64,000 nucleotides of DNA. It comes from Patescibacteria group bacterium. Lineage in GTDB: Bacteria; Patescibacteriota; Microgenomatia; UBA10105; UBA927. Position numbers and translations under genes: made by a program. The notes beneath the pieces were generated by a model. That model saw only the letters and a list, made by a program, of their open reading frames with translations. It made no database searches and had not been told where the DNA came from. Of this stretch, positions 16,010 through 63,877 are shown piece after piece. The stretch covers positions 788,791-852,790 of the forward strand of contig JBMOPU010000012.1 of NCBI GenBank assembly GCA_049322955.1, given 5' to 3'. The number at the start of each line of letters is the position of its first letter. Position 1 is the first letter of the stretch.

Positions 16010-16011
16010 AA

Positions 16012-41459: not shown

Positions 41460-42641
41460 TTAACTCCTCTGTCGTAGGAATGCGGGGATGTCGAATTCGT
41501 CCTCTTCGGGAGGCGCGTCATCAGTTTGCGGGGCAAAACTCACGGGCGGCTGTTGCTTCATGGGTTGCTCCATAGGAGTGACGGGTTGCACGGGCGGCTT
41601 ACCGAAGGTCGGAGATTGTCTGCTAAAACTTCCGCCGTATCGCGGATCCATGGCGGGCTTACTGCTTAATTCACGCAGTCGCTTCTTGGTTTCATCAAAC
41701 CCTGTCGCCACCACCGTAATCTTGATCTGATCCACCAGTTTTTCATCGATGATGGCGCCGAAAATGATGTTGGCATCGGGATCCACCGCAGATGAAATAA
41801 GCTTTGCCGCCTCATCCACTTCGGCCATCGTGAGATCGTTGCCGCCGATGATGTTAAATAACACTCCCTTGGCTCCTTCGATGGTCGTTTCAAGAAGCGG
41901 CGAGGCAATCGCGGTACGTGCCGCGGTTGCCGCACGGTTTTCACCTACTCCCGTGCCGATTCCCATAAGGGCGCTTCCCGCATTGGTCATGATGGCGCGG
42001 ACATCCGCAAAGTCCACGTTGATAAGTCCCGGCATGGTGATCAGGTCAGAAATGCCCTGCACACCCTGACCCAACACGGAATCCGTGACGCGGAATGCTT
42101 CGACCAATGTCATTTTCTTGTCGATCACTTCAAGGAGCCGTTGGTTCGGGATGACGATAAGCGTATCCACTTTGTCCTTAAGATTTGCGATCCCCTCTTC
42201 CGCAGACACCATGCGTCGGGTGCCTTCGAAGTGAAAGGGCTTGGTGACAACGGCAACGGTCAGTGCGCCGACTTCTTTGGCAATTTCTGCAAACACGGGA
42301 GTGGCTCCCGTCCCCGTGCCGCCGCCTTCACCGCAGGTCAAAAAAACCATGTCGCTGTCGCGAAGATGCTCGGCAATCTTTTCCCGTGATTCCTCCGCCG
42401 CCTGTCGGCCGATATCGGGATTTCCCCCGGCACCCAATCCGCGGGTCAGGTTATCACCGATTTGGATTTTGCTTTGCGCTTGGGAAAGAAGCAATGCCTG
42501 CGCGTCGGTATTGACGGAAATAAAATCCACGCCGTTAATCTGATTGTTGAGGATCATGGAGTTGACGGCATTACTTCCGCCGCCGCCGATGCCGACGACT
42601 TTAATTTTGGCAAACCTTGCGATATCCGGTTTTATAAGCAT
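41460..42641 (-). CDS. ftsZ: Cell division protein FtsZ
   Basis: Tubulin signature GGGTGTG ([16 protein letters not shown]), N-terminal [16 protein letters not shown]-terminal conserved peptide DIPAFLR. Confidence 0.95.
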
Positions 42642-42703
42642 AGGTATATAAATACTATGATAGTAGATTATTCCGTCAGGGGCAGTCTCACGGGGTTAAC
42701 AAT

Positions 42704-44002
42704 TTAGGGCAAGAACGACTTTACCAGATCAATGACCTTTCCAGCAAGTCCCTTTACTTGTATGGCACTTCCGATTTTTCCGAAACCGGAAAGCAATGAT
42801 CCTGATGACTCGGATTTACCCGTCGAGTTCCCCCACAACAGCAGTCCGACTCCCGCGGCATAGGAAGGAGTCATGATTTCGTCGATAAGTCCCGTTATTT
42901 TTTGCGGAATACCGATGTGCACGGGCATCGCAAGGTTTCTTCGGGCCGCTTCGACGGCGCCGACGGTCAGCGCACCTCCGCCCGTGATCACGACACCCGA
43001 AGGCGTCATCCCGCCGAATCCGCTACGCTTTATTTCAAGTCCTACCATCGTGAATATTTCGTTGAGCCTCGGCTTGATAATACCTTCGATCAACGTTTTC
43101 TTCGAAATCGATCGCATGCCCTCGGGAAGCCCCAAATCGGAAACGTCAATCTCATCATCTTTTTCAGTCTTGCTTTTCGGTTTCTCGTCTTCACTCAGGA
43201 CGGGTGTTTTGGGCAATTCACCCAAGCGAAGCTTGATCTTCTCGGCACTTTCAAGTGACACCCGAAGTCCCGCGGCAAGATCCTTGGTGATGTTTATCGC
43301 ACCGACAGGAATAACCGATGAATACGAAAGCGCGCCTTCCACGAAAATCGCCACATCCGTGGTTCCTCCGCCGATATCGACTAACACAACTCCCAATTCT
43401 TTTTCCGTATCGGAAAGCGTTGCGGCCGCGGCGGCAAGACCGCCGAACGCAATGCCCGCAACTTCCACACCTAACTCAGACACGCATTTATGCAGATTAC
43501 GGATTGCGGTTGCTCCTCCCGTAACAAGATGGGTTTCCACTTCGAGCCGCACTCCTCCCATCCCGATGGGATCAACTATCCCCTCCTGACCGTCCACGAT
43601 ATACCCGCGGGGAAGGACATGGAGAATCTCTCGAGACGTCGGCAACTGTACCGCTTTGGCGGCATCAATGACGCGCTTTACGTCAAAGGCGGTGATTTCT
43701 TTTTCCGGCTCGGCAACGGCAACCACGCCGTGCGAATTGAGCGATGCCACATGCGCTCCTCCGATACTCACAAACGCCTGGGCGACGGATGCTCCCGCCA
43801 TACGTTCGGCGGCTTCCAAAGAGGCGGAAATCGCCTCTGTCGCTTCTTCGATGTTGACTACCTGGCTTTTTCGGAGTCCCCGACTGGGTGACACCGACAC
43901 GCCGATAATGCGGGCTTCTCCTTCATCGGTGATTGCGGCGATAAGCGTGACTATTTTTGAGGAACCGATGTCTATTGCAGAGAGGATGCGATCGCGTGCC
44001 AT
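42704..44002 (-). CDS. ftsA: Cell division protein FtsA
   Basis: Actin-fold ATPase; DIGSSKIV phosphate-1 motif, VDIGGGTTDVAIF phosphate-2. Start placed at MARDRIL (44002) to avoid overlap with ftsQ; longest ORF begins 44047. Confidence 0.9.
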   Translation of the reverse strand: MARDRILSAIDIGSSKIVTLIAAITDEGEARIIGVSVSPSRGLRKSQVVNIEEATEAISASLEAAERMAGASVAQAFVSIGGAHVASLNSHGVVAVAEPEKEITAFDVKRVIDAAKAVQLPTSREILHVLPRGYIVDGQEGIVDPIGMGGVRLEVETHLVTGGATAIRNLHKCVSELGVEVAGIAFGGLAAAAATLSDTEKELGVVLVDIGGGTTDVAIFVEGALSYSSVIPVGAINITKDLAAGLRVSLESAEKIKLRLGELPKTPVLSEDEKPKSKTEKDDEIDVSDLGLPEGMRSISKKTLIEGIIKPRLNEIFTMVGLEIKRSGFGGMTPSGVVITGGGALTVGAVEAARRNLAMPVHIGIPQKITGLIDEIMTPSYAAGVGLLLWGNSTGKSESSGSLLSGFGKIGSAIQVKGLAGKVIDLVKSFLP

Positions 44003-44018
44003 AAAAGTGGTATGAAAA

Positions 44019-44723
44019 CTAGTAATTGGTGATGACCGGTTTTTCAAACCGCAAATCTATCACCGTGGGCAGTGTTCCTTTCATTCTAAACCCCTCTACA
44101 ATTATTTGTAAAGTATCTGCTTTCGCGCTTAAGTCGCCTGTTTGAGGAAGAAATATGTTTGTATTGCCGAGTTTGGCAAATAATGACTGCGTATCCCGTG
44201 GAGCGATAACCGAAATACCGGCATTTCCCTTCATCTGCCGCAGAAACGACAGCGCCGATTCCACCCGATCATCCGTGACTCTTCCCCCGGTCGAGAGAAT
44301 GCCCACATCAAACACAAGCAAAGGATGCGTATCTTTCCTTCCTACCGAACCCAAAATCAGTCCGTACTCATCCAGTTCATAAATATTTCCGGCGGATTCG
44401 ATCAGCACGAAAGTGGGTCGTTTCATAAGATGCACCACGAGCGTTCCCGGAAATTTCCGTTCAAACGATACGTCTTTGAGCAGGGGGTACGAGGAAAGCA
44501 ATTCTTTACGGAATGTGGAAACGGGCAGAAACAGCAGATTCTTGCCGAACTTTTCCCGATCCAGTTCTATCGTCATTCCGGGCGCATCCACGATAATATC
44601 GCGGATGGTGAATGCCCGAACAAGAAACATGGCAAGGATAAATGTCCCGATCAACAGCGCCGCCACTCCGCCGATGAAGCGTACCGTTCTTTTTAGGGTG
44701 TACGTCGTGAGCCGGGATGCCAT
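44019..44723 (-). CDS. ftsQ: Cell division protein FtsQ/DivIB (POTRA domain)
   Basis: N-terminal TM, POTRA-like segment (IRDIIVDAPGMTIELDREKF), position between murG and ftsA. Confidence 0.7.
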   Translation of the reverse strand: MASRLTTYTLKRTVRFIGGVAALLIGTFILAMFLVRAFTIRDIIVDAPGMTIELDREKFGKNLLFLPVSTFRKELLSSYPLLKDVSFERKFPGTLVVHLMKRPTFVLIESAGNIYELDEYGLILGSVGRKDTHPLLVFDVGILSTGGRVTDDRVESALSFLRQMKGNAGISVIAPRDTQSLFAKLGNTNIFLPQTGDLSAKADTLQIIVEGFRMKGTLPTVIDLRFEKPVITNY

Positions 44724-44732
44724 GGTCTTTAG

Positions 44733-45857
44733 TTATCGTCGGGGCGTCAATACTTCTGAAACCGTTTTCATGAGTCGTATCGCCCCGTCGTGCGGTGCCG
44801 TGGCGGCAAGCGCTTTCGCTTGTTCCTTGCGCTGTGTCATGGTTGCCGTGATTGCATCGATTGCGGCAATTAAGGACGCCGCGGTAAGCTGTCGCTGTTC
44901 AAGAATTATTGATCCTGCTTTTTCGAGTACTTTTGCATTATGGAATTGCTCGTTACCGGCAGACCACGGCAGAGGTATCAGTACGGCAACGGCGCCGACC
45001 AGCGCCAATTCCGACACCGTATTTGCGCCGGATCTTCCGACGATAAGCGCACTATGGTGCAATGCCCAACTGTATTCTTCGGCGGTGAAAAATGCCTTGT
45101 GGATATATCGCTTTCGGAGACTTTGCGGCAGTGCTCTTGCCGCTTTGTCCCCCGCTTCCACGGAAAGCCTCCCCACCTGATGCAAGACCGTGTAACGGCT
45201 AAGGAGTTTTTCGAGGGCCGCGAAAACGGCGGTATTGATACTTACCGAACCCGTGCTTCCGCCCACGACAAATAACACGGGGGTATCCGAATCAACGGCA
45301 AAAGGTGATGCTTTGGGGGGCGTGAGTACCGCACTCCGTATGGGCAGTCCGGTCACTTCCACGCGGCTTGTTTTCGGGAGCATGGCCGTCGTATCCGCAA
45401 AACTCACACATACGCGTGTTGCGATACGGGCGATAATACGGTTGGCTAATCCCGGACGAGTGGTTTGTTCGTGCGTGATAACGGGAATACCCAAAAGTTT
45501 CGCACACAAAGCAACGGGAAGCGCCACATACCCGCCGAAAGACAATATGCCGTCCGGACGCTTCCGAAGAAGCATGATAAACGCCTGCGCAAAACCGACG
45601 GGAACCTTGAACAGGGAAAAAAACGTTCCTATCCCCAAATCTCGCTTCAATCTGCCCGCGGTAATCGGCACAAACGACACCCCGAGATCGTGAATAAGGC
45701 GGTATTCCTCCGAAAGGACTTTCGTTCCTTCCAACGAATACTTTCTCCCGACAAATATAAGCCGCCAATTCGGATGCGATTGTCGTATCGCCTCTATGGT
45801 AGCGATTGCGGGAGTCACATGACCGCCGGTAATGACGAGCGTTATCGGATGGTTCAT
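44733..45857 (-). CDS. murG: UDP-GlcNAc--lipid I GlcNAc transferase MurG
   Basis: ITGGHVTPAIA N-terminal G-loop, GT28 C-terminal domain (VGRSGANTVSELALVG), synteny. Confidence 0.9.
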   Translation of the reverse strand: MNHPITLVITGGHVTPAIATIEAIRQSHPNWRLIFVGRKYSLEGTKVLSEEYRLIHDLGVSFVPITAGRLKRDLGIGTFFSLFKVPVGFAQAFIMLLRKRPDGILSFGGYVALPVALCAKLLGIPVITHEQTTRPGLANRIIARIATRVCVSFADTTAMLPKTSRVEVTGLPIRSAVLTPPKASPFAVDSDTPVLFVVGGSTGSVSINTAVFAALEKLLSRYTVLHQVGRLSVEAGDKAARALPQSLRKRYIHKAFFTAEEYSWALHHSALIVGRSGANTVSELALVGAVAVLIPLPWSAGNEQFHNAKVLEKAGSIILEQRQLTAASLIAAIDAITATMTQRKEQAKALAATAPHDGAIRLMKTVSEVLTPRR

Positions 45858-46996
45858 AACTTGTTTCCTGACTTACTTATATTATAGACAATACCAAGCG
45901 CCGCCAAGGTTACGATCAGCCCCGATCCCCCGTAGGAAATAAGCGGCAACGGCACACCGGTAAGCGGAAGTAACGCTACCATCGAACCCGTGTTGACGAG
46001 CGCCTGTGCACCGATCCACGAACCCACTCCCAACGTAAATAATTTACCGAACGGATCGTTCACCCGTTTGGCGATTTTAAAGCATCGCCAGACAAGAAAT
46101 ACGAACAGTGCAATGACAATAACCGCCCCGAAAAATCCCACTTCTTCTCCGAGGATGGCAAAAATGGAATCGGTGTTTGCCTCGGGCAAGTATTCGTATT
46201 TCTGCCGTGACTTCCCTAAACCCACCCCGAAAAATCCCCCCGATCCCAACGCGATAAGCGCCTGACGGATTTGATATGACGCCCCCAACGGATCCGATTC
46301 GGGATTGAGGAACGTCGTGACCCGGCGGAGTCTATACGGCTGTACGACGGCAAGTCCAGCAATCCCGACAATAAGCACGGGAATAAGCCCGATAAAATGC
46401 CCTACGGGAGCACCGGAAAGAAAGTAGAGTGCCATGGAGGTAACAATAATCGTTATCGCGGTTCCCAAATCCGGCTCGATAATGACGAGACCCGATACCA
46501 TGCCGAGCAACAGAAGGAATGCCAATAATCTCCCGTGCTCTTTGGTGGCAAACCATGCCGAAAGATATAGCACCATGGCCAGCTTCGCAAATTCCGCGGG
46601 CTGAAGGACAAAGAATCCGAAATCAATCCACCGATGCGCACCAAGCGCGCGTACTCCGAGGCCAGGGATAAATACGGCAATGAGCAGGATGAGCGTTACG
46701 ACGATTCCCGGAACCGCAAACCGTTTCCAAATACCGTACGGAATACGAGAAAGAATCGTAAATCCCGTAAATCCCAACAGCAACCATTTCACCTGATCGC
46801 GGACAAAATGATACGGATTGGAAAAATCCCGAAACGCGATGGCCACCGAAGAATCGTACACCATGATGATGCCGATGATGGATAACACGACCGTCGTAAG
46901 GAGGAGCCACCGGTCCCCCCGGCCTTCCGAATTTTTTATATGTCGTACCGCACTCTGCCTATCTGCTTTGTGCGCAAGTGATGCAAAAATCTTCAT
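45854..46996 (-). CDS. ftsW: SEDS peptidoglycan glycosyltransferase FtsW
   Basis: FtsW/RodA family, 10 TM; ATGA overlap with murG; located between mraY and murG. Confidence 0.85.
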   Translation of the reverse strand: MKIFASLAHKADRQSAVRHIKNSEGRGDRWLLLTTVVLSIIGIIMVYDSSVAIAFRDFSNPYHFVRDQVKWLLLGFTGFTILSRIPYGIWKRFAVPGIVVTLILLIAVFIPGLGVRALGAHRWIDFGFFVLQPAEFAKLAMVLYLSAWFATKEHGRLLAFLLLLGMVSGLVIIEPDLGTAITIIVTSMALYFLSGAPVGHFIGLIPVLIVGIAGLAVVQPYRLRRVTTFLNPESDPLGASYQIRQALIALGSGGFFGVGLGKSRQKYEYLPEANTDSIFAILGEEVGFFGAVIVIALFVFLVWRCFKIAKRVNDPFGKLFTLGVGSWIGAQALVNTGSMVALLPLTGVPLPLISYGGSGLIVTLAALGIVYNISKSGNKL

Positions 46997-47008
46997 GGTG
47001 CCGGGATC

Positions 47009-48043
47009 TTAACTCAGAAGCGCAAGCCACAAACCAAAGAGTGCCAAGACAATAGCAAGTATCCAAAACCGCATGACGATTTTTGACTCAGGCCAACCTT
47101 TCACCTGCAACCACAAGTGCAAGGGGGCGGCGGCAAAAAGCTTTTTGCCCGTGATTGATTTTGCCACAAGTTGGACGAGTGAAGATGCGACCTCAAGAAC
47201 GAATATTCCTCCGATGACGACCAGTGCCGGGGTTTTTCCGAGGATCAGTCCGACCACGGCAAAGGTGGCACCGAAGGAAAGCGAACCGACATCCCCCATG
47301 AATATACGGGAGGGCAAGACGTTAAAGTACAAAAACGCCAACATTCCGCCGATCCATAACGCCAAAAACAGGGAAAGCACGGTGTCCAAGATAGCCGCCG
47401 ATAAAAACCAAAATGCAAAAAGCGCAATCACCAGTACTCCCGCGGACAGTCCGTCCAGTCCGTCGGTAATATTAAACGCATTGGCGAATGCGATAATCAC
47501 AAACACCGCAAACGGTATGTACCACCATCCGAGGTGAAACACCCCCAGAAGCGGCAGATGGACGATGCCGATCTTCAAATCGTGTACCAACCAAAATCCG
47601 ATGATACCCGCAAGCAATATTTCAAGGTATAGCTTATGCCGGAGCCTCAGACCGAAAAATCCGTTCTTTACCCAGCCGAATGTTTTTTTCGTATCATCCA
47701 AAAGACCCAACAACCCGAACGAGATAAAGGTGAATAACAGAATCTTTACCTCACTTGCCAACGGATACACCGACGTAATCGGTATCCAGAAATAGTACAT
47801 GAGGACCAGCAACACCGGCAAAAGCAGGGTCGTGAGCGCGATAATCAGAAGTCCTCCTCCCACGGGAGTACCTGCCTTGTGATGGTGGAATTTGTCAAAA
47901 AGCGGGGTTCGTTTATTGAACATGTCGCGGGTGACCTGATCGAGTCTGCGAAGCTTCAAATGATACAGAAGTTTGATAAACGGGATGAACAATACACTGT
48001 GGATAAGCCACGAAAATAAGACGACGCCGAGAAGTAATTGCAT
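47009..48043 (-). CDS. mraY: Phospho-N-acetylmuramoyl-pentapeptide transferase MraY
   Basis: NAFNITDGLDGLSAGV and FMGDVGSLSFGATFAVVG motifs. Confidence 0.95.
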   Translation of the reverse strand: MQLLLGVVLFSWLIHSVLFIPFIKLLYHLKLRRLDQVTRDMFNKRTPLFDKFHHHKAGTPVGGGLLIIALTTLLLPVLLVLMYYFWIPITSVYPLASEVKILLFTFISFGLLGLLDDTKKTFGWVKNGFFGLRLRHKLYLEILLAGIIGFWLVHDLKIGIVHLPLLGVFHLGWWYIPFAVFVIIAFANAFNITDGLDGLSAGVLVIALFAFWFLSAAILDTVLSLFLALWIGGMLAFLYFNVLPSRIFMGDVGSLSFGATFAVVGLILGKTPALVVIGGIFVLEVASSLVQLVAKSITGKKLFAAAPLHLWLQVKGWPESKIVMRFWILAIVLALFGLWLALLS

Positions 48044-48046
48044 AGG

Positions 48047-48421
48047 TTAATACCCGAAACGGGCAACTAATTTGGGTCCCAATATCAGTACCGCCACCAG
48101 TACCGCACCGAATGCTACGGTCAACATCATACCTGCGGCGACATCTTTGGCGATTTTGGCCTCTTTGCGCCACTCGGTGGTAATAAGGTCGGTCATTGAT
48201 TCAAGTGCGGTATTGATCATCTCTGCGGAAAGTCCCAATACGATGGTAAATGCGATGATCGCTCCTTCGACGGGGCTCACCCCAAGATAGGTGCACAGAA
48301 AAAGCGCGAGAATTGAAAGCGCGATATGTACGCGAAAATTCGGCTGGGTGGTGATTGCCCACCAAAGGCCGGAAAATGCGTTTTTAAATGAGATATGGTG
48401 TTGCATCAATATCTTTTTCAT
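48047..48421 (-). CDS. dgkA: Diacylglycerol/undecaprenol kinase (DgkA family)
   Basis: 124 aa, 3 TM; EMINTALE and KDVAAG motifs of prokaryotic DAGK. Confidence 0.7.
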   Translation of the reverse strand: MKKILMQHHISFKNAFSGLWWAITTQPNFRVHIALSILALFLCTYLGVSPVEGAIIAFTIVLGLSAEMINTALESMTDLITTEWRKEAKIAKDVAAGMMLTVAFGAVLVAVLILGPKLVARFGY

Positions 48422-48482
48422 ATCCCTATGCTCCTAAGTATAGGTGGTTGCCCGGTAAAACTCAACGAAACGGCATAGCCGC

Positions 48483-49532
48483 CTAATCGTACCCTTTCAT
48501 AAGACGCCTGATCGTTTCAACGGTTCGCGGAATAATGTACAGGGGAGATAACGGAATATCCTGCGCATGAGAATATTCGACCACCCTGCCCCCGAATCCC
48601 TTTTTGAACAATGTTATTCCTCGCCATGGATGATTTGGGCTGTTTTCCGGTGCTATACCCCAAAAATTGTACACTTTCATTCCTCTTTTTTTGGCATCTT
48701 TGATTGCTTCCCACTGCAGAAGTGGCGACGCGGGTACTTTTGACTGTACCGATGCGCCATGGTGATATATCGCCTGATTGCCGTAATACAGGATAATCGC
48801 CGACGCCGTCGTTTTGCCTTCATATTTGCCCAAATACAGCAAGGCCTGTTTTGCTTTCGCAAACAGCGCAAATTCTTCCCGTATGCCAACATGCGGGACA
48901 AACCCGTGGCGGTTGCTTGTCGCTTCATAGAGCGAAAAAAATTCATGAAGATATTTGCCGTCCGTGGTCGTAAAGACCGCCACCCCTTCCTTTTGCCCGC
49001 GACGCACCTCATAACGGACCGTTTTTCGCATACCGGAGAGCAACTCTTCTTCCGATTTATCAAGATCCAATACCCAGCAATACTCCCCGTCCATCCGATG
49101 CATGGCGGCGGGTATCGTGCGCAGGCGGGAAAACAGTGATGCGGTTTCGGGGGAATTCGGCAGTAAGGGACTGATCCGTATGAAGACGCATCCTAACTTT
49201 TTTGCTTCTCGGGTCAGCAGTGCAAGGGATGCTTTCCACGTAGCAATGTCCTGTTTTTCAAAAACCGGACCGTGTCGCACATGCAAGAACTTTCCCCGTT
49301 TTGCGTTGACGAGCACGGCTTGCGCGACACCTACAAGTTTGTCACCCCGGTAAAATCCGTATCGCGACACGGCAATGTGGGCGTTTTTTTGTACTTCACC
49401 CCATAACCAGCTCTGAAAAAGCGCCTGAGGACTGTGTCGGAGGATAAACCATTCCCACGTGGCGCGATCTTCGACAATACGCATGAGGAGTTTCATATCG
49501 CTATTGTACGTGAAAGGATGATTCGACGCCAA
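48483..49532 (-). CDS. FemAB-family peptidoglycan aminoacyl/peptidyl transferase (FemX/MurM-like)
   Basis: FemAB domain features (YRGDKLVGVAQAV...GKTTASAIILYYGNQAIYHHGAS...). Possible alternative start at Met-13 (49496) avoiding overlap with the MBL gene. Confidence 0.7.
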   Translation of the reverse strand: MASNHPFTYNSDMKLLMRIVEDRATWEWFILRHSPQALFQSWLWGEVQKNAHIAVSRYGFYRGDKLVGVAQAVLVNAKRGKFLHVRHGPVFEKQDIATWKASLALLTREAKKLGCVFIRISPLLPNSPETASLFSRLRTIPAAMHRMDGEYCWVLDLDKSEEELLSGMRKTVRYEVRRGQKEGVAVFTTTDGKYLHEFFSLYEATSNRHGFVPHVGIREEFALFAKAKQALLYLGKYEGKTTASAIILYYGNQAIYHHGASVQSKVPASPLLQWEAIKDAKKRGMKVYNFWGIAPENSPNHPWRGITLFKKGFGGRVVEYSHAQDIPLSPLYIIPRTVETIRRLMKGYD

Positions 49533-50133: not shown

Positions 50134-50135
50134 GG

Positions 50136-51104: not shown

Positions 51105-51107
51105 TGG

Positions 51108-52349: not shown

Positions 52350-52354
52350 AGCGG

Positions 52355-53953: not shown

Positions 53954-53954
53954 A

Positions 53955-54671: not shown

Positions 54672-54677
54672 AGGGCG

Positions 54678-55988: not shown

Positions 55989-57325
55989 GGCAACTGCTCC
56001 TTTTTCCGGCTGATGGTCGCACCTACGGAACTCAACCGGCCTTCAAGGTCTTCATAACCGCGATCGATAAGATCAACGTTGTGGATATAGCTTTCGCCCG
56101 AAGCGACAAGCGCCGCAAGAACAAGCGACGCCCCCGCCCGGATATCATCGGCTGAAAGCACGGCGTTATGAAGCGTCGACTTTCCGTGAATTCGTATGCC
56201 CTGATGATACCCTTCTTTCCGGTCTTCCCAATTGAAGTTATAAAAATCGGGAGGATTTTTCACCTCGGGGTCGTAAAAGGTTATATCGGCACCCATTTTC
56301 ATAAGCTCTCCCACATATGAAAATCTGCTTTCAAACACCGTTTCGTGAATCGTCGAGGTACCTTCAGCCTGCGTCATAAATACCGCCCACGGCGCCTGCC
56401 AATCGGTCATAAATCCCGGATGCGGGAGCGTAACGATGTCCGTCCCCGTAAGGCGGCCGCCGCTTCTGTACCGGGTGCTCGTTTCATCTATCGGCTCATA
56501 CACCCCGCCCGCCTGTGCAAATACGGACAAAAATGAGGAAAGGTGTTTTCGTTGGGATCCGGTGACGATAAGATCTCCTCCCGTAATAGCCGCCGCGATG
56601 GCAAACGTTACCTCTTCATTTCGGTCAGGCATGATGGTGTACTCGACGCCGTGCAGTTTATCCACTCCCTCGATGACAATGGTTCGGGGAGTCGTGCGCC
56701 GAATGTTTGCACCCATAAGGTTAAGACAGTCGATGAGGTCATCGACTTCCACTTCTTCCGCGGCATTTTCTATGACGGTTTGTCCTTTTGCAAGCACCGC
56801 GGCCAATATGATAGTTTCGGTGCCGGTGTGCGTATTTTTCGGGAATGTCACGGTAGCACCGTGAAGCCCTGTAGCCGTTGCATGAAAAAATCCGTCTTCC
56901 GAATTGTAGTCAATGACGGCTCCCATATCCCGAAGTCCCACTATATGGCGGTCAATCGGACGCGCGCCCAACCTGCATCCGCCGGGATTGGGAACATGTG
57001 CTTTGCCGTATCGTGCAAGAAGCGGACCCAATACCATCGAAGAGGTCCGAAGCCGTGCGCCGATATCAAGAGGAACAAGCGGTTCACTCGCCATGGTACC
57101 GTTTTTTATGACCAAATCATGCCGGGTAAATACGGCGGAAACCCCCAAACTCTTCAGGACTTCGATAAGGGAAAACACGTCCTTAAGATGCGGGACGTTG
57201 TGAATAATGATTTCCTCGTCGGTGAGGAGGGATGCGATAAGGATCTTCAAGGCGACATTTTTTGCGCCCTCAACATGAATCGTACCGGTTAGCGGATTGC
57301 CGCCTTTGATGATAAACGTATCCAT
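55985..57325 (-). CDS. murA: UDP-N-acetylglucosamine 1-carboxyvinyltransferase MurA
   Basis: EPT family; active-site Cys region (NPGGCRLGARPID), 446 aa. Confidence 0.95.
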   Translation of the reverse strand: MDTFIIKGGNPLTGTIHVEGAKNVALKILIASLLTDEEIIIHNVPHLKDVFSLIEVLKSLGVSAVFTRHDLVIKNGTMASEPLVPLDIGARLRTSSMVLGPLLARYGKAHVPNPGGCRLGARPIDRHIVGLRDMGAVIDYNSEDGFFHATATGLHGATVTFPKNTHTGTETIILAAVLAKGQTVIENAAEEVEVDDLIDCLNLMGANIRRTTPRTIVIEGVDKLHGVEYTIMPDRNEEVTFAIAAAITGGDLIVTGSQRKHLSSFLSVFAQAGGVYEPIDETSTRYRSGGRLTGTDIVTLPHPGFMTDWQAPWAVFMTQAEGTSTIHETVFESRFSYVGELMKMGADITFYDPEVKNPPDFYNFNWEDRKEGYHQGIRIHGKSTLHNAVLSADDIRAGASLVLAALVASGESYIHNVDLIDRGYEDLEGRLSSVGATISRKKEQLP

Positions 57326-57326
57326 A

Positions 57327-58307
57327 TCAGAATTCTCCCACCCGTATAATCTCTTCTTCGAGACTCACGCCGAATTTTTCCTTCACGGCTGTTCTTGCCG
57401 CCTCGATTAATTCTACCACGTCGACTGCCGTTGCATTTTTTCTGTTGATGATAAAGTTTGCATGCACCGGCGAAATTTCCGCGTCTCCGATCACTTTTCC
57501 TTTCATCCCCGCGTGATCGACCAAAAAGCCCGCCGATGTCGTGTAGTTGGGGGTTGCGGCGGTAAGTGCCGATGCTTTGGAAATGTTTTTGAACGTACAT
57601 CCCGCGGAAAATACCCCCTGGGGCTGTGTTTCCCTGCGATACCCGATGCTTTCGTTTGCTACCTGCCACAGTCGGTCTTTTTCATCCTGGACAAGGGCAA
57701 AGGTGACCGAAACGACGATATCACCCGTTTTTTGCAGGGCGCTATAGTCGTATGCAAAGTCGAAGTAATCCCGCGATACGATCTTGCGTTCCCCTTCCGG
57801 AGTGAGGAGTTCCGCCTGATACACCACGTCTCCCACGTAGCCTACCGGTTTCGTCCATTTGGAATTCATAAACGTCGCCCCTCCCACGCTCCCGGGAAGA
57901 CCCAGTTGCATCTCAAGCCCCGATAATCCTTCTTCTATCGTAAATCGCACCAGCTTGTTCATCGAAACTCCCGCATCCGCCTCGACAAAGACCGTTTTTT
58001 TCTTTGCTCCCTGTTCCACTGACCCACGGATCCCCCTGATCGTAATTGCCTGTGATGAATTTTTTATGACAATCCCCCGTATACCGCGATCTCCGATGAG
58101 AATGTTTGTCCCGCCGCCCATGACAAAAAGCGGCAACCCCGTTGCCCTGGCAAGGGATACTGCCGTAATAAATTCTTCTTTGGTTTTTGCCTCATAAAAG
58201 TAATCGGCCGGCCCGCCGATTTTGAAGGTGGTGTAGCGGGCAAGCGGCTCCTGTTCTTTCACTTTCGGAGCGAGTCGGCTTAAAAACTCATACAGTCTGT
58301 CCGTCAT
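57327..58307 (-). CDS. murB: UDP-N-acetylenolpyruvoylglucosamine reductase MurB
   Basis: FAD-binding domain (YTTFKIGGPADYF...MGGGTNIL) and MurB C-terminal domain. Start set at MTDRLYEF (58307) to avoid overlapping murC. Confidence 0.85.
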   Translation of the reverse strand: MTDRLYEFLSRLAPKVKEQEPLARYTTFKIGGPADYFYEAKTKEEFITAVSLARATGLPLFVMGGGTNILIGDRGIRGIVIKNSSQAITIRGIRGSVEQGAKKKTVFVEADAGVSMNKLVRFTIEEGLSGLEMQLGLPGSVGGATFMNSKWTKPVGYVGDVVYQAELLTPEGERKIVSRDYFDFAYDYSALQKTGDIVVSVTFALVQDEKDRLWQVANESIGYRRETQPQGVFSAGCTFKNISKASALTAATPNYTTSAGFLVDHAGMKGKVIGDAEISPVHANFIINRKNATAVDVVELIEAARTAVKEKFGVSLEEEIIRVGEF

Positions 58308-59716
58308 AATGTTACCTCCCGTATGACATCGTGTTCCCAATTATATATGTCTCCCGCGCCCATAAACATAACGACGGTATCATGATTCGACAGGGTGCGA
58401 AGAAGGGTTGCCACCGCGTTTTGGTCTTTTGCAAAATGCACCTCTTTGTGATGGGGAGAAAGCTCATTAACGAGCGTCATTCCCGTGATACCCAGCGTAT
58501 CGTGTTCCCGGGCGGACGCGTAAATATCGGTAAGAATGACGGTGTCCGCATCCGAAAAACACGCGCCGAATTCTTTTAACAGCGTTTTGGTTCGGGAGTA
58601 CGTATGCGGCTGAAATACGGCAATAATCCGGGATGACGGATACCATGATCTTGCGGCCTTGAGCGTTGCCGCTATCTCGGTGGGGTGATGGGCGTAATCG
58701 TCGTAGAAACGAAGCGTGTCGGTACTTCCGGGTAACGCCTCAAACCGTCGTTTTGTGCCCGTAAATCCGGTGATGCCTTCCTTGAGTACGTCCCAACCGA
58801 CGCCCGCAATATGCGCGGAAACCATTGCCGCCACGGCATTTAACACGTTATGCCTGCCGGGAACCTTCAGCGAAAATTCACCCAGCGAAACACCGCGTTC
58901 GTGCAACGTAAAAAACATTCTGCCGTTCCCCACCCCCACATGCGTAATCTGATACTCCGCATTCGGGGAGAACCCGAACGTCACGACGTTTTGTTTGCCG
59001 AGAAGCACTCTGCTGTTGGCATCGTCGGCATTACATACGACGGTGGTACTTTTTTCCTGCAGTTTGGTAAATGCCGCCTGGACCTGGGCAAGATCGGCGT
59101 ACGCATCGGGGTGATCAAAATCAATGTTCGTAACGATGAGTATTTCGGGAACAAGCCACAGAAACCGCGGCGTCTGATCATGACCGGGATCAGTGACATA
59201 TTCATCGCCCTCGGCGATGAAAAAACTGCCTTTTCCTTTTCTGCCCGCGGCTCCCAAACCGTTAATCGATCCGCACCCGATCGCCCAGCTCGGTTCACTT
59301 CCGGCGCGGGAAAGGAGCACCGCAACCATGGCACTCGTCGTCGTTTTACCGTGGCTCCCCGAAACGACGATCTGACGTGTTCCCTGCATGATCATCCCGA
59401 GTGCCTGCCCGTGCGGAAATACGGGGATGCCCGCTTCCCGTGCGGCAACGACCTCTACATTATCCCGTCCGTTATGCGCTCCGGTATAATACACGACGTC
59501 GGGTGCCTGCTTCCCCGTCATCCTTGATGCGTCAAAGCCGACCGAGACGGGAATCCGTGCCCGATCAAGTTCTTCCTTTGTGGGGAAATCATCCGCAATA
59601 TCGCTTCCCGTCACCTTCACTCCGCAATCGTTGAGATAAACGGCAAGCGCCGACATGGCGACGCCCTTGACCCCCACAAGATGGGCATGCTTATACGGAA
59701 AGTTTGTGTGTTTCAT
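58304..59716 (-). CDS. murC: UDP-N-acetylmuramate--L-alanine ligase MurC
   Basis: Mur ligase N-terminal Rossmann (LVGVKGVAMSALA), P-loop SGSHGKTTT, and MurC-specific DDYAHHP. Confidence 0.9.
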   Translation of the reverse strand: MKHTNFPYKHAHLVGVKGVAMSALAVYLNDCGVKVTGSDIADDFPTKEELDRARIPVSVGFDASRMTGKQAPDVVYYTGAHNGRDNVEVVAAREAGIPVFPHGQALGMIMQGTRQIVVSGSHGKTTTSAMVAVLLSRAGSEPSWAIGCGSINGLGAAGRKGKGSFFIAEGDEYVTDPGHDQTPRFLWLVPEILIVTNIDFDHPDAYADLAQVQAAFTKLQEKSTTVVCNADDANSRVLLGKQNVVTFGFSPNAEYQITHVGVGNGRMFFTLHERGVSLGEFSLKVPGRHNVLNAVAAMVSAHIAGVGWDVLKEGITGFTGTKRRFEALPGSTDTLRFYDDYAHHPTEIAATLKAARSWYPSSRIIAVFQPHTYSRTKTLLKEFGACFSDADTVILTDIYASAREHDTLGITGMTLVNELSPHHKEVHFAKDQNAVATLLRTLSNHDTVVMFMGAGDIYNWEHDVIREVTL

Positions 59717-59745
59717 AATGAATTATCCGGTAATGCCGATCACCC

Positions 59746-60441
59746 CTATAATTTCTCCGAATGTTTCCTTGGTATCTTTGCGAAACGAAAAAAACGGTCA
59801 TTCTGACACGACGTGCAGGTAACCGGCGCATCAATGTGTACCTGGGTAACGCCTGCGGTAAGAAGCAGTTGTCTGTTCGCATAGCCGATATCAGCGTACC
59901 AGGTATCACCGCTGTTTGAGATAATGAGCGGATCATTACCGAACTTTTTTGCAAACAACTCAGCCCGATCACTCCCTATAGCATAACAGCATCTGCCGAT
60001 ATGCGGACCGATCGATGCATAGATAGTAGCAGGCGTGGCTCCCTGTTGTGTCATACGGGTCACCGCATTTTGCACGATACCGGCAAGCGTTCCCTTCCAG
60101 CCCGCATGCACCGCGGCGACAACTTTTGCCACCGGATCCGCAAGAAGCACCGGCACACAGTCCGCAACATGCACTTCCAGCATGACGGATGGATCCGCCG
60201 TTACCACTCCGTCGACTCCCGAAACCGTCCGGGGAAACGTCGCATCGACGACCGCAACGTCCGAAGCGTGCACCTGTTGCCCCCGAATGACGGGACGGGT
60301 GGTGCCGATAACTTTTTTGATAAACGCATCCGTATTGGTTGCGATTCGTCCGTCACCCATTGTGCGATCCGAATAGCCGTGCGTAATGCCGGGAAGTCCC
60401 GAAAGAAGTGTCGATTGCCCTCTGCCGTTTGTATAAATCAT
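59746..60441 (-). CDS. pgeF: Peptidoglycan editing factor PgeF / YfiH (Cu-oxidase_4, DUF152)
   Basis: HVADCVPVLL and AAVHAGWKG motifs. Confidence 0.8.
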   Translation of the reverse strand: MIYTNGRGQSTLLSGLPGITHGYSDRTMGDGRIATNTDAFIKKVIGTTRPVIRGQQVHASDVAVVDATFPRTVSGVDGVVTADPSVMLEVHVADCVPVLLADPVAKVVAAVHAGWKGTLAGIVQNAVTRMTQQGATPATIYASIGPHIGRCCYAIGSDRAELFAKKFGNDPLIISNSGDTWYADIGYANRQLLLTAGVTQVHIDAPVTCTSCQNDRFFRFAKIPRKHSEKL

Positions 60442-61658
60442 CGTGATTTCTTCCGCTTTGCCAAAAGCTTTTTTGCCGCAGACGCATCACTCCAGGGATA
60501 TTCCTTTGTCCCGCGACACAAACTTTGTTCGTGACCTTTTCCAGTCAATATAACGATATCCCCCGGTTTGGCCTGTGAAAACGCAAATACGACCGCGTCT
60601 TTGCGATTGGGGTACCGATGGACTTCTTTGCCCTCGGGAATGCCTTTTGCGATGGCATCCATGATATCCTCGACGTTTTCGGTGCGGAAATCCTCCTCGG
60701 TTAATACGATACAGTTGGCGTATTTTGCCGATGCAGCTCCCATCAGCGGCCGTTTTGACTGATCCCGAAGTCCCGCGCTTCCGAACACGTGAATCAGGCG
60801 TTTTCGCGTCATCTTTCGGACCGTTGAAAGCGCTTTTTCCAATGCGTTGGGAGTGTGGGCAAAATCAACAATAACCTTGAACGGTTTTTCCGCAATGACC
60901 TGCATCCTCCCCACCACCCCCGAAAAATGCTTGAGGGCAGAAAGCGAAACGGAACGGGAAATACCCAAAGCATCCGCGACGGCAAGCGCGGCAAGCGCGT
61001 TATACCGGTTGAACATACCGGGGATCTTGAGGCGCACGGGATGAGTTTTGGGATTCACCATACTGTCGCGGCGTATGCCGTAAGTGATGTAGCGTTTCTT
61101 GGTAAGATACGGCATGCCCGCCATATAAACGTTTGCTTCATCGCGGTTTATGACGGCAACTTTTGCCTGCGAAAGCAGGGTAAGTTTAGTTTTCCGATAG
61201 TTTTCAAACGTGCCGTGCCAATCAAGATGTTCGTGCGTGATATTGGTGATCGCTCCCACGGCAAATCGAACACCGAACACCCGGGACTGACTTAGGGCGT
61301 GGGACGTAACTTCAAGTACCATGTGGGTGTCGCCGTGATCCACCGCCTCCCGCAGATACCGCTGTACCCACCAGGCGGTGGGGGTGGTGACATGGAATCC
61401 CGTGTCATAGGAACGCCCCGCAATCACCGCATGCACCGAGGTGATCATGGAGGCTTTTACCTTGGCTTTTTTCAAAATTTCATACACCATCGTGGTCGTG
61501 GTGGTTTTCCCGTCCGTACCCGTGATACCGATAACCGTGAGTGACCGGCTCGGAAACCGGAACCAGATATTGGCCACAATAGCCACCGCGAGATGGTAGA
61601 GCCCCTTGAGGGTTCGTAGCATGAGGCTATTATACCGAAAGTAAGCCGACAAGAGCAA
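60438..61658 (-). CDS. murE: UDP-MurNAc-L-Ala-D-Glu--diamino acid ligase MurE (short N-terminus)
   Basis: P-loop GITGTDGKTTTT only ~42 aa from N-terminus; MurE-type DFAHTPNALEKAL (DYAHTPDAL-like) and GSAGLRDQSKRPLMG; specificity motif reads EDFRTE rather than DNPR. Confidence 0.75.
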   Translation of the reverse strand: MLLSAYFRYNSLMLRTLKGLYHLAVAIVANIWFRFPSRSLTVIGITGTDGKTTTTTMVYEILKKAKVKASMITSVHAVIAGRSYDTGFHVTTPTAWWVQRYLREAVDHGDTHMVLEVTSHALSQSRVFGVRFAVGAITNITHEHLDWHGTFENYRKTKLTLLSQAKVAVINRDEANVYMAGMPYLTKKRYITYGIRRDSMVNPKTHPVRLKIPGMFNRYNALAALAVADALGISRSVSLSALKHFSGVVGRMQVIAEKPFKVIVDFAHTPNALEKALSTVRKMTRKRLIHVFGSAGLRDQSKRPLMGAASAKYANCIVLTEEDFRTENVEDIMDAIAKGIPEGKEVHRYPNRKDAVVFAFSQAKPGDIVILTGKGHEQSLCRGTKEYPWSDASAAKKLLAKRKKSR

Positions 61659-61689
61659 AAAAGCACGCTCAAAACGCCCACGCCTGTTT

Positions 61690-61843
61690 CATCCGGTGGA
61701 AGGGAAAATCGTTGGGAAAAAACCGCAGGTTTTGTCCCAAAGTGGTCAGCGCCCGAGGAAGCCTCGTCCACAACCGTTCATCTGAAGGGAAAATCGTTGG
61801 GAAAAAACCGCAGGTTTTGTCCCAAAGTGGTCAGCGCTCTATG
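61690..61843. repeat. Intergenic tandem direct repeat (two ~54-60-nt units, 85-nt period), each carrying a near-perfect 11-bp stem-loop
   Basis: Unit 1 61699-61752 and unit 2 61784-61837 are identical (GAAGGGAAAATCGTTGGGAAAAAACCGCAGGTTTTGTCCCAAAGTGGTCAGCGC); each contains hairpin GGGAAAAAACC-GCA-GGTTTTGTCCC; spacers contain further hairpins (CGAGGAAGCCTCG; CTGGGGAGGAATTCCCCAG). The two ORF-track ORFs 61712.. and 61797.. share an identical N-terminus because of this repeat. Confidence 0.55.
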
Positions 61844-63529
61844 TTACTGGGGAGGAATTCCCCAGTACGTGAACAGATCACGCGCAATCGTAAAAAACAG
61901 CGGTGCGGCGGTCTCCGATCCCCAGGGAGAACTCGTGGTCTCGCGAAGCGTCACCAACATAACAAAGCGCGGATTATCTGCGGGAGCAAACCCCACAAAT
62001 GAAGCGATCGTTTTTGTGGCATCGTAATGCCCTGCGATGGGGATCTGGGCCGTTCCGGTTTTCCCCGCCACCCGATAGCCTTTGGGTTTTGCCCATTTCG
62101 CTTCACCGTTATCGACGGCCGCCACCATCATTTCGGTGACAATGCGCGCGGTTTCCGGCTTGAGCACCTGTTGCACCGTTTTGGGCGGGATAGTGATGGT
62201 TTTTCCCGTTGCCTCCCGTATTTCCTTCACAACATGCGGCTCCATGAGCTTTCCGCCGTTGGCGAGCGCGGCTATCGCGCGTACCATCTGCACGGGTGTT
62301 ACCGCGATACCCTGGCCGAACGATGCGGTGTATTGGTCGACTTCACCCCACTCCTTATCGGCACGCAGATCGGGAGAGGCCTCGTCCTCGAGGTCTATGC
62401 GCGTTATCTTGCCGAAGCCGTATTTTTTAATCGCGCCGATGAGTTTATCCTTGCCTAATTTTTTCGCCACATAGACCATACCGACGTTACTGGAGTACTC
62501 GAGCACCTGGGTCATCGTTATTTTGCCGTGATATTGGTTATTCCAGGTGCGTATTTTATACGGTCCCACTTCAACCGGCGCGTCTTCATCCATGACCGTA
62601 TCGGGCTCAACCAGGTTTTCATCAATAGCCGAGGCCATAATGAGGGCCTTAAACGTACTTCCCGGCTCAAACGAACTTCCCACAATGGGATTTTTATACA
62701 GGGATTTATCAAACGCTGAAAAATTCCGTGCGTCATAGTTGGGGAATGCCGCCATGGCAAGAATGCCTCCGGTAGAAGGATCCATGACCACGATGTTGCC
62801 TTCCTTCGCCCCGTACCGTTCCATGCCTTCCTTAAGTCGCCGTTCCACGATCTGTTGCACCACTTTATCCATCCATAACACCAAGGTGCGTCCGTCCTCG
62901 GGCGATATCCGATCTTCCTGACTGATAAGGATAGGGGCACCGTGGGCGTCTTTTTCGAGTCTTCGGGAACCGTCTATACCGCGGAGCTGTCTATCGTAAT
63001 ACCCTTCCAGACCGAAGTACCCTTTGTCCGAACCGTTGACGTCGCTCCCCACAAACCCCGTGAGGTGAGCCGCCGTCGAAGCCTCGGGATAAAACCGCTT
63101 TGGTTCTTTCTCAAATCCCAAACCGCTTAATTGTAACGCCTTGAGCTCGGTTACCACGGGCAGTTCGACTTTGTGGGCAAAGGGCACCCACACCCGGGAC
63201 GTATCGGATAAATCCGTCGCCATTTTGACGGGATCAAGTCCTAAAATTTTGGCCACCTTTTCCGAAAAATCCCGGACATCCGTGATGGTTCGCGGCTCGC
63301 CGTACACCACATAGGCGGGCTGATTTACCACAATCGGTGCGTATTTGCTGTCCAGAATTTCGCCGCGGGCGGCGGGAACCGTAAATTGTATGAAGTGCTG
63401 ATTGGCGGCGGCTTTTTGGAGCCTTGCTCCCGAAATAATCTGCCAGTAAAAAAGACGCATGATAACCAGCGAGAATCCGATCGCGAACAAGGTAAAAAGC
63501 AGTGAGGAGCGACGCTGTGTAGTGCCCAT
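61844..63529 (-). CDS. ftsI: Peptidoglycan D,D-transpeptidase FtsI (class B PBP)
   Basis: N-terminal TM, PBP dimerisation domain, transpeptidase motifs STFK (GSTFKALI), SSN (YSSNVG), KTGT (GKTGTAQ). Confidence 0.9.
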   Translation of the reverse strand: MGTTQRRSSLLFTLFAIGFSLVIMRLFYWQIISGARLQKAAANQHFIQFTVPAARGEILDSKYAPIVVNQPAYVVYGEPRTITDVRDFSEKVAKILGLDPVKMATDLSDTSRVWVPFAHKVELPVVTELKALQLSGLGFEKEPKRFYPEASTAAHLTGFVGSDVNGSDKGYFGLEGYYDRQLRGIDGSRRLEKDAHGAPILISQEDRISPEDGRTLVLWMDKVVQQIVERRLKEGMERYGAKEGNIVVMDPSTGGILAMAAFPNYDARNFSAFDKSLYKNPIVGSSFEPGSTFKALIMASAIDENLVEPDTVMDEDAPVEVGPYKIRTWNNQYHGKITMTQVLEYSSNVGMVYVAKKLGKDKLIGAIKKYGFGKITRIDLEDEASPDLRADKEWGEVDQYTASFGQGIAVTPVQMVRAIAALANGGKLMEPHVVKEIREATGKTITIPPKTVQQVLKPETARIVTEMMVAAVDNGEAKWAKPKGYRVAGKTGTAQIPIAGHYDATKTIASFVGFAPADNPRFVMLVTLRETTSSPWGSETAAPLFFTIARDLFTYWGIPPQ

Positions 63530-63553
63530 TCCATTATCCTACCACGGACAGCA

Positions 63554-63877
63554 CTACTGTACCGGGGTAAGTAGCGCGTTATGACCGGTATCCAATGCGA
63601 CCGGTACCTGTAACGATAGGTTAAGAATCTGTTTGGTGGTAGGCTCGACGAATCCTTCGGCTAGCGCGCGTTCACGAAGCTGTAACAACGATGAGGCGGA
63701 GGCAACTGCTATGGTAAGTGATTCACGAGCCTCATTCTCTATGCGAACGTCGTGATCAAGAGAAGCCATTTTTTTGCCGAGTGTGGCAAGTTCATTGGAG
63801 ATGATGACCTGGACGATAAGAAGGACGATAGCGGTAATGGGCAGAAGTATTTCAGCGATTCGTAGCAGGCGTTTCAT
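63554..63877 (-). CDS. ftsL: Cell division protein FtsL-like (single TM + coiled coil)
   Basis: 107 aa, TM helix LLPITAIVLLIVQVIISN followed by heptad-like region; conserved position between rsmH and ftsI. Confidence 0.5.
   Translation of the reverse strand: MKRLLRIAEILLPITAIVLLIVQVIISNELATLGKKMASLDHDVRIENEARESLTIAVASASSLLQLRERALAEGFVEPTTKQILNLSLQVPVALDTGHNALLTPVQ

Follow-up and report, generated by a model that had tools for sequence, protein, structure and literature searches.

In the textbook view, the four Mur ligases are soluble, three-domain enzymes that bind UDP-sugars, and to our knowledge, also from the literature searched, they have been described only as soluble cytoplasmic enzymes. 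In the canonical division and cell wall (dcw) cluster, exemplified by the 15-gene mraZ to ftsZ form of E. coli, a head of mraZ-rsmH-ftsL-ftsI and a tail of ftsQ-ftsA-ftsZ enclose adjacent murE and murF, murD between mraY and ftsW, and murC-ddl before ftsQ, and a 17-gene form also includes murA and murB (PMC8871954). Here we compare these systems with a 64,000-nucleotide stretch of contig JBMOPU010000012.1 from a Patescibacteria group bacterium, henceforth the window. Its positions 41460–63877 probably represent the dcw operon typical of one clade of Candidatus Gottesmanbacteria (Microgenomates; candidate phyla radiation, CPR), which would encode a near-complete peptidoglycan pathway. This lineage departs from the textbook in three respects: its MurE has two domains, its MurF-like ligase is predicted to be integrated into the membrane, and the module for incorporation of D-Glu has been cut from an otherwise rigidly conserved operon. 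As far as we can tell, neither the combination of a membrane-integrated MurF with a MurE lacking domain 1 nor the excision of murD (murI-murD) has been described before.

Between 41460 and 63877, 21 genes form a single array on the minus strand, and all of them were identified with Pfam and NCBIfam models. The Logan contig L125 (database loci are numbered with the prefix L) carries mraZ-rsmH-ftsL-ftsI, and the final 300 bases of the window match it exactly; as mraZ and rsmH thus lie directly upstream on an overlapping contig, the whole cluster comprises 23 genes. Extension past the window end with FtsI as query recovered mraZ-rsmH alone, on short contigs. In 5' to 3' order of the coding strand, the features are:

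63852–64000, minus strand: 3' end of rsmH (mraW), which continues past the window end, as does mraZ (overlap with L125)
63554–63877, minus strand: ftsL-like gene between rsmH and ftsI, 107 amino acids (aa), one N-terminal transmembrane (TM) helix (hydropathy segment at residues 3–35), conserved in L002–L006
61844–63529, minus strand: ftsI, class B penicillin-binding protein (PBP; PBP_dimer and Transpeptidase domains, E 2.6e-76)
60438–61658, minus strand: murE, 394–406 aa (TIGR01085, 382 bits)
59746–60441, minus strand: pgeF, peptidoglycan editing factor family, YfiH/Cu-oxidase_4 (PF02578, 1.3e-52; TIGR00726)
58304–59716, minus strand: murC, full three-domain ligase (TIGR01082, 396 bits, cutoff 335)
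57327–58340, minus strand: murB (FAD_binding_4 and MurB_C)
55985–57325, minus strand: murA (EPSP_synthase fold, 6.6e-82; 55% identity to murA of L044)
54678–55988, minus strand: GlmU-like gene, archaeal-type bifunctional sugar-1-phosphate nucleotidylyltransferase/acetyltransferase (TIGR03992; match to ST0452, 2ggo)
53955–54671, minus strand: alpha/beta hydrolase with GHSFG nucleophile elbow (Abhydrolase_1, 1.2e-30)
52355–53953, minus strand: murF-like ligase, 532 aa (TIGR01143; sequence matches in the PDB, structure model and Foldseek matches)
51108–52349, minus strand: DegT/DnrJ/EryC1-family pyridoxal phosphate (PLP) aminotransferase with an insertion of ~65 aa (PF01041, 1e-57)
50136–51104, minus strand: fusion of a CvpA membrane domain with an extracytoplasmic CAP/YkwD domain (Colicin_V and CAP domains; YkwD, 2.3e-36)
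49501–50133, minus strand: hydrolase of the metallo-beta-lactamase (MBL) fold with HGHFDH motif (Lactamase_B, 2.1e-26)
48483–49532, minus strand: FemAB-family (FemX-like) transferase, 337–349 aa (PF02388, 1.7e-32)
48047–48421, minus strand: dgkA-family small lipid kinase (DAGK_prokar, 3e-29)
47009–48043, minus strand: mraY (Glycos_transf_4; 83–94% identity across window-type loci)
45854–46996, minus strand: ftsW (FTSW_RODA_SPOVE, 9.5e-106)
44733–45857, minus strand: murG (Glyco_transf_28 N- and C-terminal domains)
44019–44723, minus strand: ftsQ (POTRA_1)
42704–44047, minus strand: ftsA, with a likely start near 44002 that gives 432 aa as in relatives (FtsA and SHS2_FTSA; tblastn alignment)
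41460–42641, minus strand: ftsZ (self-score 844 bits; orthologs 58–90% identical and annotated with Tubulin/FtsZ_C Pfam domains)

The canonical head is thus preserved across the window and L125, as is the co-directional and tightly packed tail of ftsW-murG followed by ftsQ-ftsA-ftsZ. The interior, in contrast, differs from the canonical cluster. The cluster holds eight extra genes (pgeF, the GlmU-like gene, the alpha/beta hydrolase, degT, cvpA-CAP, the MBL hydrolase, femAB and dgkA), places six genes between murE and murF, and has murC ahead of murB and mraY instead of before ftsQ together with ddl, for which no match was obtained in the window; mraY is followed after only 12 bp by ftsW instead of murD. 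An earlier, sequence-only reading of this DNA had proposed such a departure from the canonical layout, and the gene identities and order agree with it. All inserted genes that it listed were confirmed, but pgeF had escaped it, and it had not remarked on the missing ddl; murE does adjoin ftsI, but its distance to murF is 6.5 kb end to start, or 7.7 kb start to start, rather than the 8 kb given. The presence of murA and murB, regarded there as an oddity, is real but belongs to the 17-gene form of the cluster (PMC8871954).

Neighboring genes are spaced by −4 to +62 bp, except for ftsI and murE, whose gap measures about 185–220 bp. We infer that the array forms one operon in which precursor supply, ligation of the stem peptide, its editing, the lipid-linked steps and side-chain addition of the FemX type would be co-expressed with the divisome. 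Scans for promoters and terminators across 44001–64000, which covers all but ftsZ and most of ftsA, performed no better than on shuffled sequences. The 61-bp gap between femAB and dgkA, the only sizeable one in the mur block, contains a hairpin resembling a terminator and, after it, a promoter-like site (48437–48484, minus strand); neither class was enriched over shuffled sequence.

Fourteen other loci, taken from metagenome assemblies and GTDB representative genomes, show the same gene order. The window-type loci (L001–L015) come from assemblies in ENA, JGI, NCBI and Logan, some on contigs as long as 1.22 and 1.29 Mb, and their order is identical except for cvpA-CAP, which was undetected in L008 and L014. 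The comparison across the lineage that the sequence-only reading had called for therefore identifies the layout as lineage-typical. One could argue that the atypical order and the absence of murD are assembly or binning artefacts, as the window stems from a metagenome assembly and some GTDB records are mislabeled as "uncultured Gammaproteobacteria". However, identical junctions occur when different samples are compared across ENA, JGI, NCBI and Logan, also on the contigs of 1.2–1.3 Mb, and the Logan contig L001 (SRR32167788) is 100% identical to the window DNA over 14.7 kb. We thus attach virtually no credence to an artefact and, since the order recurs in 14 further loci, regard the cluster as a trait of the lineage.

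The assignment to this lineage is based on several observations. Homologs of the MurF-like protein carry the names Candidatus Gottesmanbacteria or Patescibacteria, the NCBI lineage reads Patescibacteria group, Microgenomates group, and the GTDB loci L009–L012 and L015 are titled Gottesmanbacteria. MraY of the GTDB loci is 83–94% identical, and L007, a GTDB species representative, shares 97.6% DNA identity with the window. L007, L008, L013 and other GTDB metagenome-assembled genomes of Gottesmanbacteria or Microgenomates are titled "uncultured Gammaproteobacteria bacterium", which looks like a placeholder mislabel.

The most unusual protein of the cluster is the MurF-like ligase. Its residues 1–170 form a polytopic, hydrophobic helical domain, which is followed by the central and C-terminal domains of MurF. 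Pfam matches and an alignment to E. coli MurF revealed both Mur ligase domains, the P-loop and the catalytic residues, and the P-loop, E233, H263, K277, D416 and N419/N420 are invariant in 56 homologs. The best match among PDB sequences was E. coli MurF (1gg4, 5e-31), the AlphaFold2 (AF2) model of the whole protein (predicted local distance difference test, pLDDT, 93) retrieved MurF structures as its top nine Foldseek matches, and NCBIfam, PDB sequence and Foldseek comparisons all favored MurF over MurC, MurD and MurE as the nearest family. The score against TIGR01143 was 220.1 bits, below the cutoff of 288.6. From its sequence, we propose that the enzyme adds D-Ala-D-Ala to the UDP-N-acetylmuramic acid (UDP-MurNAc) tripeptide. 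The canonical MurFs of E. coli (1gg4) and Acinetobacter baumannii (4qf5) share the central ATPase and C-terminal domains, the P-loop and the catalytic residues, but where they have an N-terminal UDP-binding domain the window-type proteins carry a polytopic membrane domain of 130–172 aa without fold relative. Residues 1–170 yielded neither a Pfam nor a fold match, and the membrane domain takes the place of the UDP-MurNAc-binding domain. A MurE-MurF fusion (8f5d), which was among the sequence matches of the window MurF, is comparable in that its architecture also couples late cytoplasmic steps; in the window, however, any coupling would be to the membrane and perhaps MraY via the TM domain, and not by fusion of ligases. 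No relevant literature was found on murD or FemAB in CPR or Microgenomates, or on transmembrane MurF.

For the window MurF five TM helices were predicted, and three for shorter homologs. Two to six hydrophobic segments precede the P-loop in 120 of 120 MurF homologs, compared to zero or one in 120 MurD controls. Modeled alone, the domain is all-helical (pLDDT 93–94 for the whole-protein and domain models). It contains the invariant polar motifs LWWxKEYRxDRMxIH...QG, PPxSPK and PTxxYH, with W27, K30-E31-Y32-R33, D35, M37, H40, Q45-G46, P99, P103-K104, P152 and Y156-H157 invariant, as is the intramembrane D135, whereas the intramembrane R15 is near-invariant. According to the positive-inside rule, the conserved polar motifs are all predicted to lie in cytoplasmic loops. 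A search with the membrane domain alone returned 33 matches among 1.84 billion cluster representatives, most of them proteins of 446–579 aa with the domain at or near the N-terminus, the shorter ones probably being fragments; by this measure the domain appears restricted to this protein family, and it lacks a recognizable fold relative.

These features might indicate that the membrane domain is a module for binding a substrate or partner, and that the ligase completes the stem peptide either while this is linked to a lipid or in a fixed complex with MraY. The loss of the canonical UDP-binding domain, the invariant polar residues (among them D135, and R15 if near-invariance is accepted), the predicted location of the conserved polar motifs on the cytoplasmic face and the finding that the domain never occurs apart from MurF (in the search of 1.84 billion representatives) would fit this function. 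The invariant residues could, however, serve folding or docking only, and the MurFs of the sister clades, at 373–412 aa, lack an N-terminal domain entirely, which suggests that the other two domains are enough for the soluble substrate. On balance we regard a binding module as a rather unlikely alternative to a function of the domain as a passive membrane anchor for MurF. A distant TM-MurF homolog of 532 aa is encoded in the Levybacteria locus L038 (8360–9955) between glmS and mraY. It aligns from end to end with 20% identity; its P-loop is degenerate, Pfam finds no Mur-ligase match in it, and it may be a pseudo-enzyme.

The MurE of the window is reduced as well. It scored 382 bits against TIGR01085 (cutoff 257), but the match begins only at about position 88 of the profile: the N-terminal UDP-binding domain 1 is absent, and there is no in-frame coding sequence upstream. 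A frameshift that hides this domain was considered and rejected, as the overlapping 99-aa ORF at 61472–61771 does not resemble MurE and the gene is equally short in relatives. Indeed, MurE has 391–412 aa and lacks domain 1 in almost all Microgenomates loci examined. In reference enzymes, the motif DNPR denotes the diaminopimelate (DAP) type and D(D/N)P(N/A) the Lys type. The DNPR of E. coli reads EDFR in the window MurE, with Arg kept and Asn and Pro replaced; the aligned sister clades have EDPR, and the window-type clade has EDF/YR.

The third peculiarity is the absence of murD. Searches with phmmer, using the three Mur ligases of the window against all its stop-to-stop ORFs, recovered only these three. 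A custom profile hidden Markov model built from 120 CPR MurDs and E. coli MurD detected no MurD among the window ORFs, its top match being MurE with 118 bits (true MurDs score 488–515), and likewise the NCBIfam model TIGR01087 found no MurD in the window, with MurE as the best-scoring ORF (118.5 bits). Together with the 12-bp gap these results confirm the earlier claim that murD is missing between mraY and ftsW and elsewhere in the window. The MurF-like gene was considered as a disguised MurD, but NCBIfam, the PDB sequence search and Foldseek each ranked MurF first. Furthermore, a tblastn search with Ddl and GlmS of a close relative found nothing in the 64-kb window, and a MurI query gave only a spurious out-of-frame match inside mraY.

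The sister clades show what has been removed. The closest sister found, L095 (FtsZ and FtsA 77%, MraY 69% identity), has the order murF-like, degT, MBL, femAB, dgkA, mraY, murI, murD, ftsW, murG, ftsQ, ftsA, ftsZ, with murI at about 5210–5995 between mraY and murD, and L077 has the same order without murI. Their MurDs reached 345–377 bits (cutoff 212), and MurI 200 bits (TIGR00067, cutoff 147). Homologs of MurI also occur at most about 1 kb from murD in four other CPR loci (L053, L062, L069 and L087). L044, an NCBI "Gottesmanbacteria" locus with an FtsZ identity of 71–81%, reads murC, murB, murA, glmU, glmS, a 67-aa ORF, ddl, murF (412 aa, without TM domain), dgkA, mraY, murD and ftsW. In this locus, whose region upstream of murF is readable, glmS-ddl thus occupy the place of the alpha/beta hydrolase in the window. 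The canonical mraY-murD-ftsW is also kept in L042 and L016–L019. In Levybacteria, murE-pgeF-murC-(murB)-murA is followed by varying combinations of NTP-transferase, GNAT, HAD and GlmS genes and then by (TM-murF)-mraY-ftsW, also without murD. Relative to L095 and L077, the cluster of the window-type clade lacks murD and has gained cvpA-CAP, and the comparison of these sequences indicates that murD (murI-murD in the closest sister) was cleanly excised from between mraY and ftsW. The sequence-only reading had implied that the inserted genes and the missing murD belong together, but this tie does not hold, as L095 and L077 keep murD before ftsW. Since they combine degT-MBL-femAB-dgkA-mraY with murD, the accessory genes were also rejected as a substitute for MurD.

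As to the fate of MurD, MurI and Ddl, we consider it fairly likely that they have been relocated and are encoded elsewhere in the genome. This is favored because mur genes readily enter and leave the cluster in neighboring lineages (murC and murA are absent from the clusters of L016–L019, murB and murF from that of L021), and because the retention and conservation of MurC, MurE and MurF imply sequential synthesis of the stem peptide. The clade could alternatively be truly devoid of MurD and MurI, perhaps also of Ddl, and synthesize a non-canonical stem peptide; MurE or the divergent MurF-like ligase might then use other substrates, or peptides might be salvaged from a host. Consistent with such a loss, murD has been cleanly removed in every window-type locus while the nearest sisters keep it, the closest one together with murI; glmS and ddl, found ahead of murF in L044, are likewise absent from both cluster and window; MurF has diverged to an unusual degree and scores below its family cutoff; and the MurE motif has shifted from EDPR in the sisters to EDF/YR. 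In addition, two MurD-based searches, one seeded with the MurD of L017 and one with a profile, yielded no window-type MurD, only L044-type sequences, among the best 120 of >7000 matches, a range which a divergent MurD would escape. Against a true loss speak the same arguments that favor relocation, and we know of no peptidoglycan that lacks D-Glu at position 2. We therefore judge true loss to be unlikely. It would be less probable still that MurI and MurD (perhaps with Ddl) are wholly gone and that, in addition, a MurF-type ligase with a lipid-facing domain finishes a non-canonical stem peptide at the membrane. Should the clade prove to have no MurD, its stem peptide would be of a new kind, and if the ligase also faced the lipid, stem-peptide assembly would proceed partly on or with a lipid-linked intermediate and not with a soluble UDP-sugar.

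Several of the inserted genes, two of them listed as atypical in the sequence-only reading, turned out to be ordinary cell wall genes. The GlmU-like protein aligned over its full length to ST0452 of Sulfolobus tokodaii, a dual nucleotidylyltransferase/acetyltransferase (1.7e-41), with which it shares the nucleotidyltransferase and left-handed beta-helix acetyltransferase domains. Both domains are also covered by TIGR03992 (residues 7–397 align to positions 3–391), but the score of 215 bits lies below the cutoff of 292. Its gene adjoins murA, where related Microgenomates carry GlmU, GlmS, NTP-transferase or GNAT genes. The match to ST0452 and this location suggest a normal supply of UDP-N-acetylglucosamine (UDP-GlcNAc) rather than a modified sugar as proposed earlier. 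In the Levybacteria loci L021, L025 and L038 a split UDP-GlcNAc module beside murA replaces the fused archaeal-type GlmU; it consists of an NTP-transferase and, variably, a GNAT acetyltransferase, an HAD hydrolase and GlmS. The presence of dgkA upstream of mraY is similarly ordinary, being shared with L077, L095 and L044, a sister with a canonical cluster. DgkA homologs of Gram-positive bacteria act as undecaprenol kinases, which fits a function in the supply of the lipid carrier. Both the GlmU-type gene beside murA and dgkA beside mraY are ancestral in the wider lineage. PgeF, likewise an ordinary wall protein, whose family is annotated to edit mis-charged UDP-MurNAc-amino acids, scored marginally above the TIGR00726 cutoff (141.2 vs. 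141.15).

The FemAB-family gene is conserved and located two genes upstream of mraY. Its product clearly belongs to PF02388 (113 bits, gathering threshold 24), but scored only 46.8 bits against the FemX equivalog NF047883 (cutoff 500). The best solved relative is FemX of Weissella viridescens (3.8e-8), a UDP-MurNAc-pentapeptide-lysine N6-alanyltransferase; both proteins share the FemAB fold and a length of ~337 aa, and each is aligned over most of its sequence. The similarity is very distant, however, and the Arg in the motif of the window MurE is typical of the DAP type and not of the Lys type. The addition of a side chain or branch to the stem peptide by this FemX-like enzyme is a reasonable inference from its sequence, but no more. 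Of the features from which the sequence-only reading derived a modified precursor, the FemAB-family gene would fit such a branch; no evidence of an altered precursor was obtained.

The alpha/beta hydrolase, DegT, CvpA-CAP and the MBL hydrolase are lineage-specific, conserved additions to the cluster. DegT belongs to PF01041 (196 bits, threshold 19.8), its best match being QdtB (1.8e-37), and the lysine of its GRDKSL motif aligns with that of YPAKNL in QdtB; with this catalytic lysine conserved, the protein is a genuine PLP aminotransferase. It stayed far below the cutoffs for PseC, LegC, ArnB, WecE and other subfamilies, to which only its N-terminal half aligns well. The alpha/beta hydrolase was found only in window-type loci, and CvpA-CAP is absent from L095 and L077. 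The latter protein matches the SCP-domain protein 4ifa and, weakly and far below the NCBIfam cutoffs, MarP and DalA. MarP joins a CvpA-like membrane domain to a periplasmic protease; the membrane domain of the window protein resembles the MarP N-terminus and bears an extracytoplasmic domain, but this is of the CAP/YkwD type and not a protease; the weak DalA-family match involves the CAP domain. DalA is a peptidoglycan-binding divisome lipoprotein (PMC10470522).

Envelope-related roles are likely for these four proteins. Alternatively they might be hitch-hiking housekeeping proteins without any role in the wall, as none of the four reaches an equivalog-level assignment and the clusters of Levybacteria and of the L042 type hold other insertions at the same positions. 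Small genes also move: a four-TM gene of the Phage_holin_4_2 family lies within the cluster between MBL and femAB in L005 (14324–14662) and L006 (14321–14659), but about 8 kb outside of it in the window (33792–34139, minus strand), so that the cluster seems to tolerate some traffic of small genes. However, gene order and near-zero spacing have been kept across the window-type loci while MurF identity fell to 47% and that of MraY to 83%, degT-MBL-femAB move as a set in L077 and L095, and the architecture of CvpA-CAP resembles those of the envelope proteins MarP (N-terminal domain) and DalA (PMC10470522). In the window-type relatives compared, the accessory proteins are 41–74% identical, similar to MurC, MurF and MurG, and their catalytic motifs (GHSFG, HGHFDH and the PLP lysine) are intact. 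On this evidence hitch-hiking is rather unlikely, and we retain envelope-related roles as likely.

Taken together, the gene set suggests the following pathway. The archaeal-type GlmU would provide UDP-GlcNAc, which MurA, MurB and MurC may convert to UDP-MurNAc-L-Ala, with PgeF as editing enzyme. MurE would then attach the diamino acid despite lacking the N-terminal domain, and MurF the terminal dipeptide. DgkA might supply the lipid phosphate carrier, from which MraY and MurG would form lipid I and lipid II, and the FemX-like enzyme could add a side-chain residue before septal polymerization by FtsW and FtsI with FtsL, FtsQ, FtsA and FtsZ. As MurF is presumably tethered to the membrane by its domain of three to five helices, the last cytoplasmic, soluble step would be placed beside MraY. 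If the membrane domain indeed docks MurF to MraY, this would be a natural, hard-wired case of the long-proposed channeling between cytoplasm and membrane. Moreover, with the FemX-like enzyme, PgeF, CvpA-CAP, DegT and the two hydrolases, the cluster offers a compact and testable list of envelope parts for uncultivated CPR bacteria.

Several points weigh against this interpretation. Firstly, murD, murI and ddl were absent wherever they were searched for, so that a complete pathway is an assumption. Secondly, the window MurF scores below the curated cutoff (220 vs. 288.6) and is only 23–28% identical to the short MurFs of the sisters, and its dipeptide substrate could therefore differ. Thirdly, its membrane insertion and topology were derived from hydropathy, the positive-inside pattern and the AF2 model, and the operon status from spacing only. 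Finally, DegT, both hydrolases and CvpA-CAP lack equivalog-level assignments, and in a small genome that rearranges slowly, conserved synteny is by itself no proof of a functional link.

Outside the dcw cluster, the window encodes further envelope functions. A glycan-assembly block on the minus strand (6801–16857) comprises a Wzy_C O-antigen-ligase-like protein, glycosyltransferases of families GT87, GT2 and GT4 (two copies), another GT2, a membrane glycosyltransferase of the PMT_2 type and a methyltransferase, with a PIG-L deacetylase (943–1755) and YceG/MltG (3974–4945) nearby. A second SEDS protein, which is RodA-like (25054–26160, minus strand; 1.7e-80), has no adjacent class B PBP, and its gene overlaps the 3' end of the isoleucyl-tRNA synthetase gene (26112–28955). 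Two segments differ from their surroundings. Between 16000 and 18937 the GC content falls to 35%, and this region, which encodes a 660-aa protein with weak matches to LCAT/PGAP1/lipase-like alpha/beta hydrolases (16955–18937, plus strand), may be acquired DNA. The segment at about 37883–39760 is strain-variable, as L007 does not align here despite its 97.6% identity; it has a lower GC content (41.7%) and a strong GC skew of −0.18, and holds a 328-aa ORF without Pfam match (38790–39776) and an ORF with a bPH_2 domain (38000–38533).

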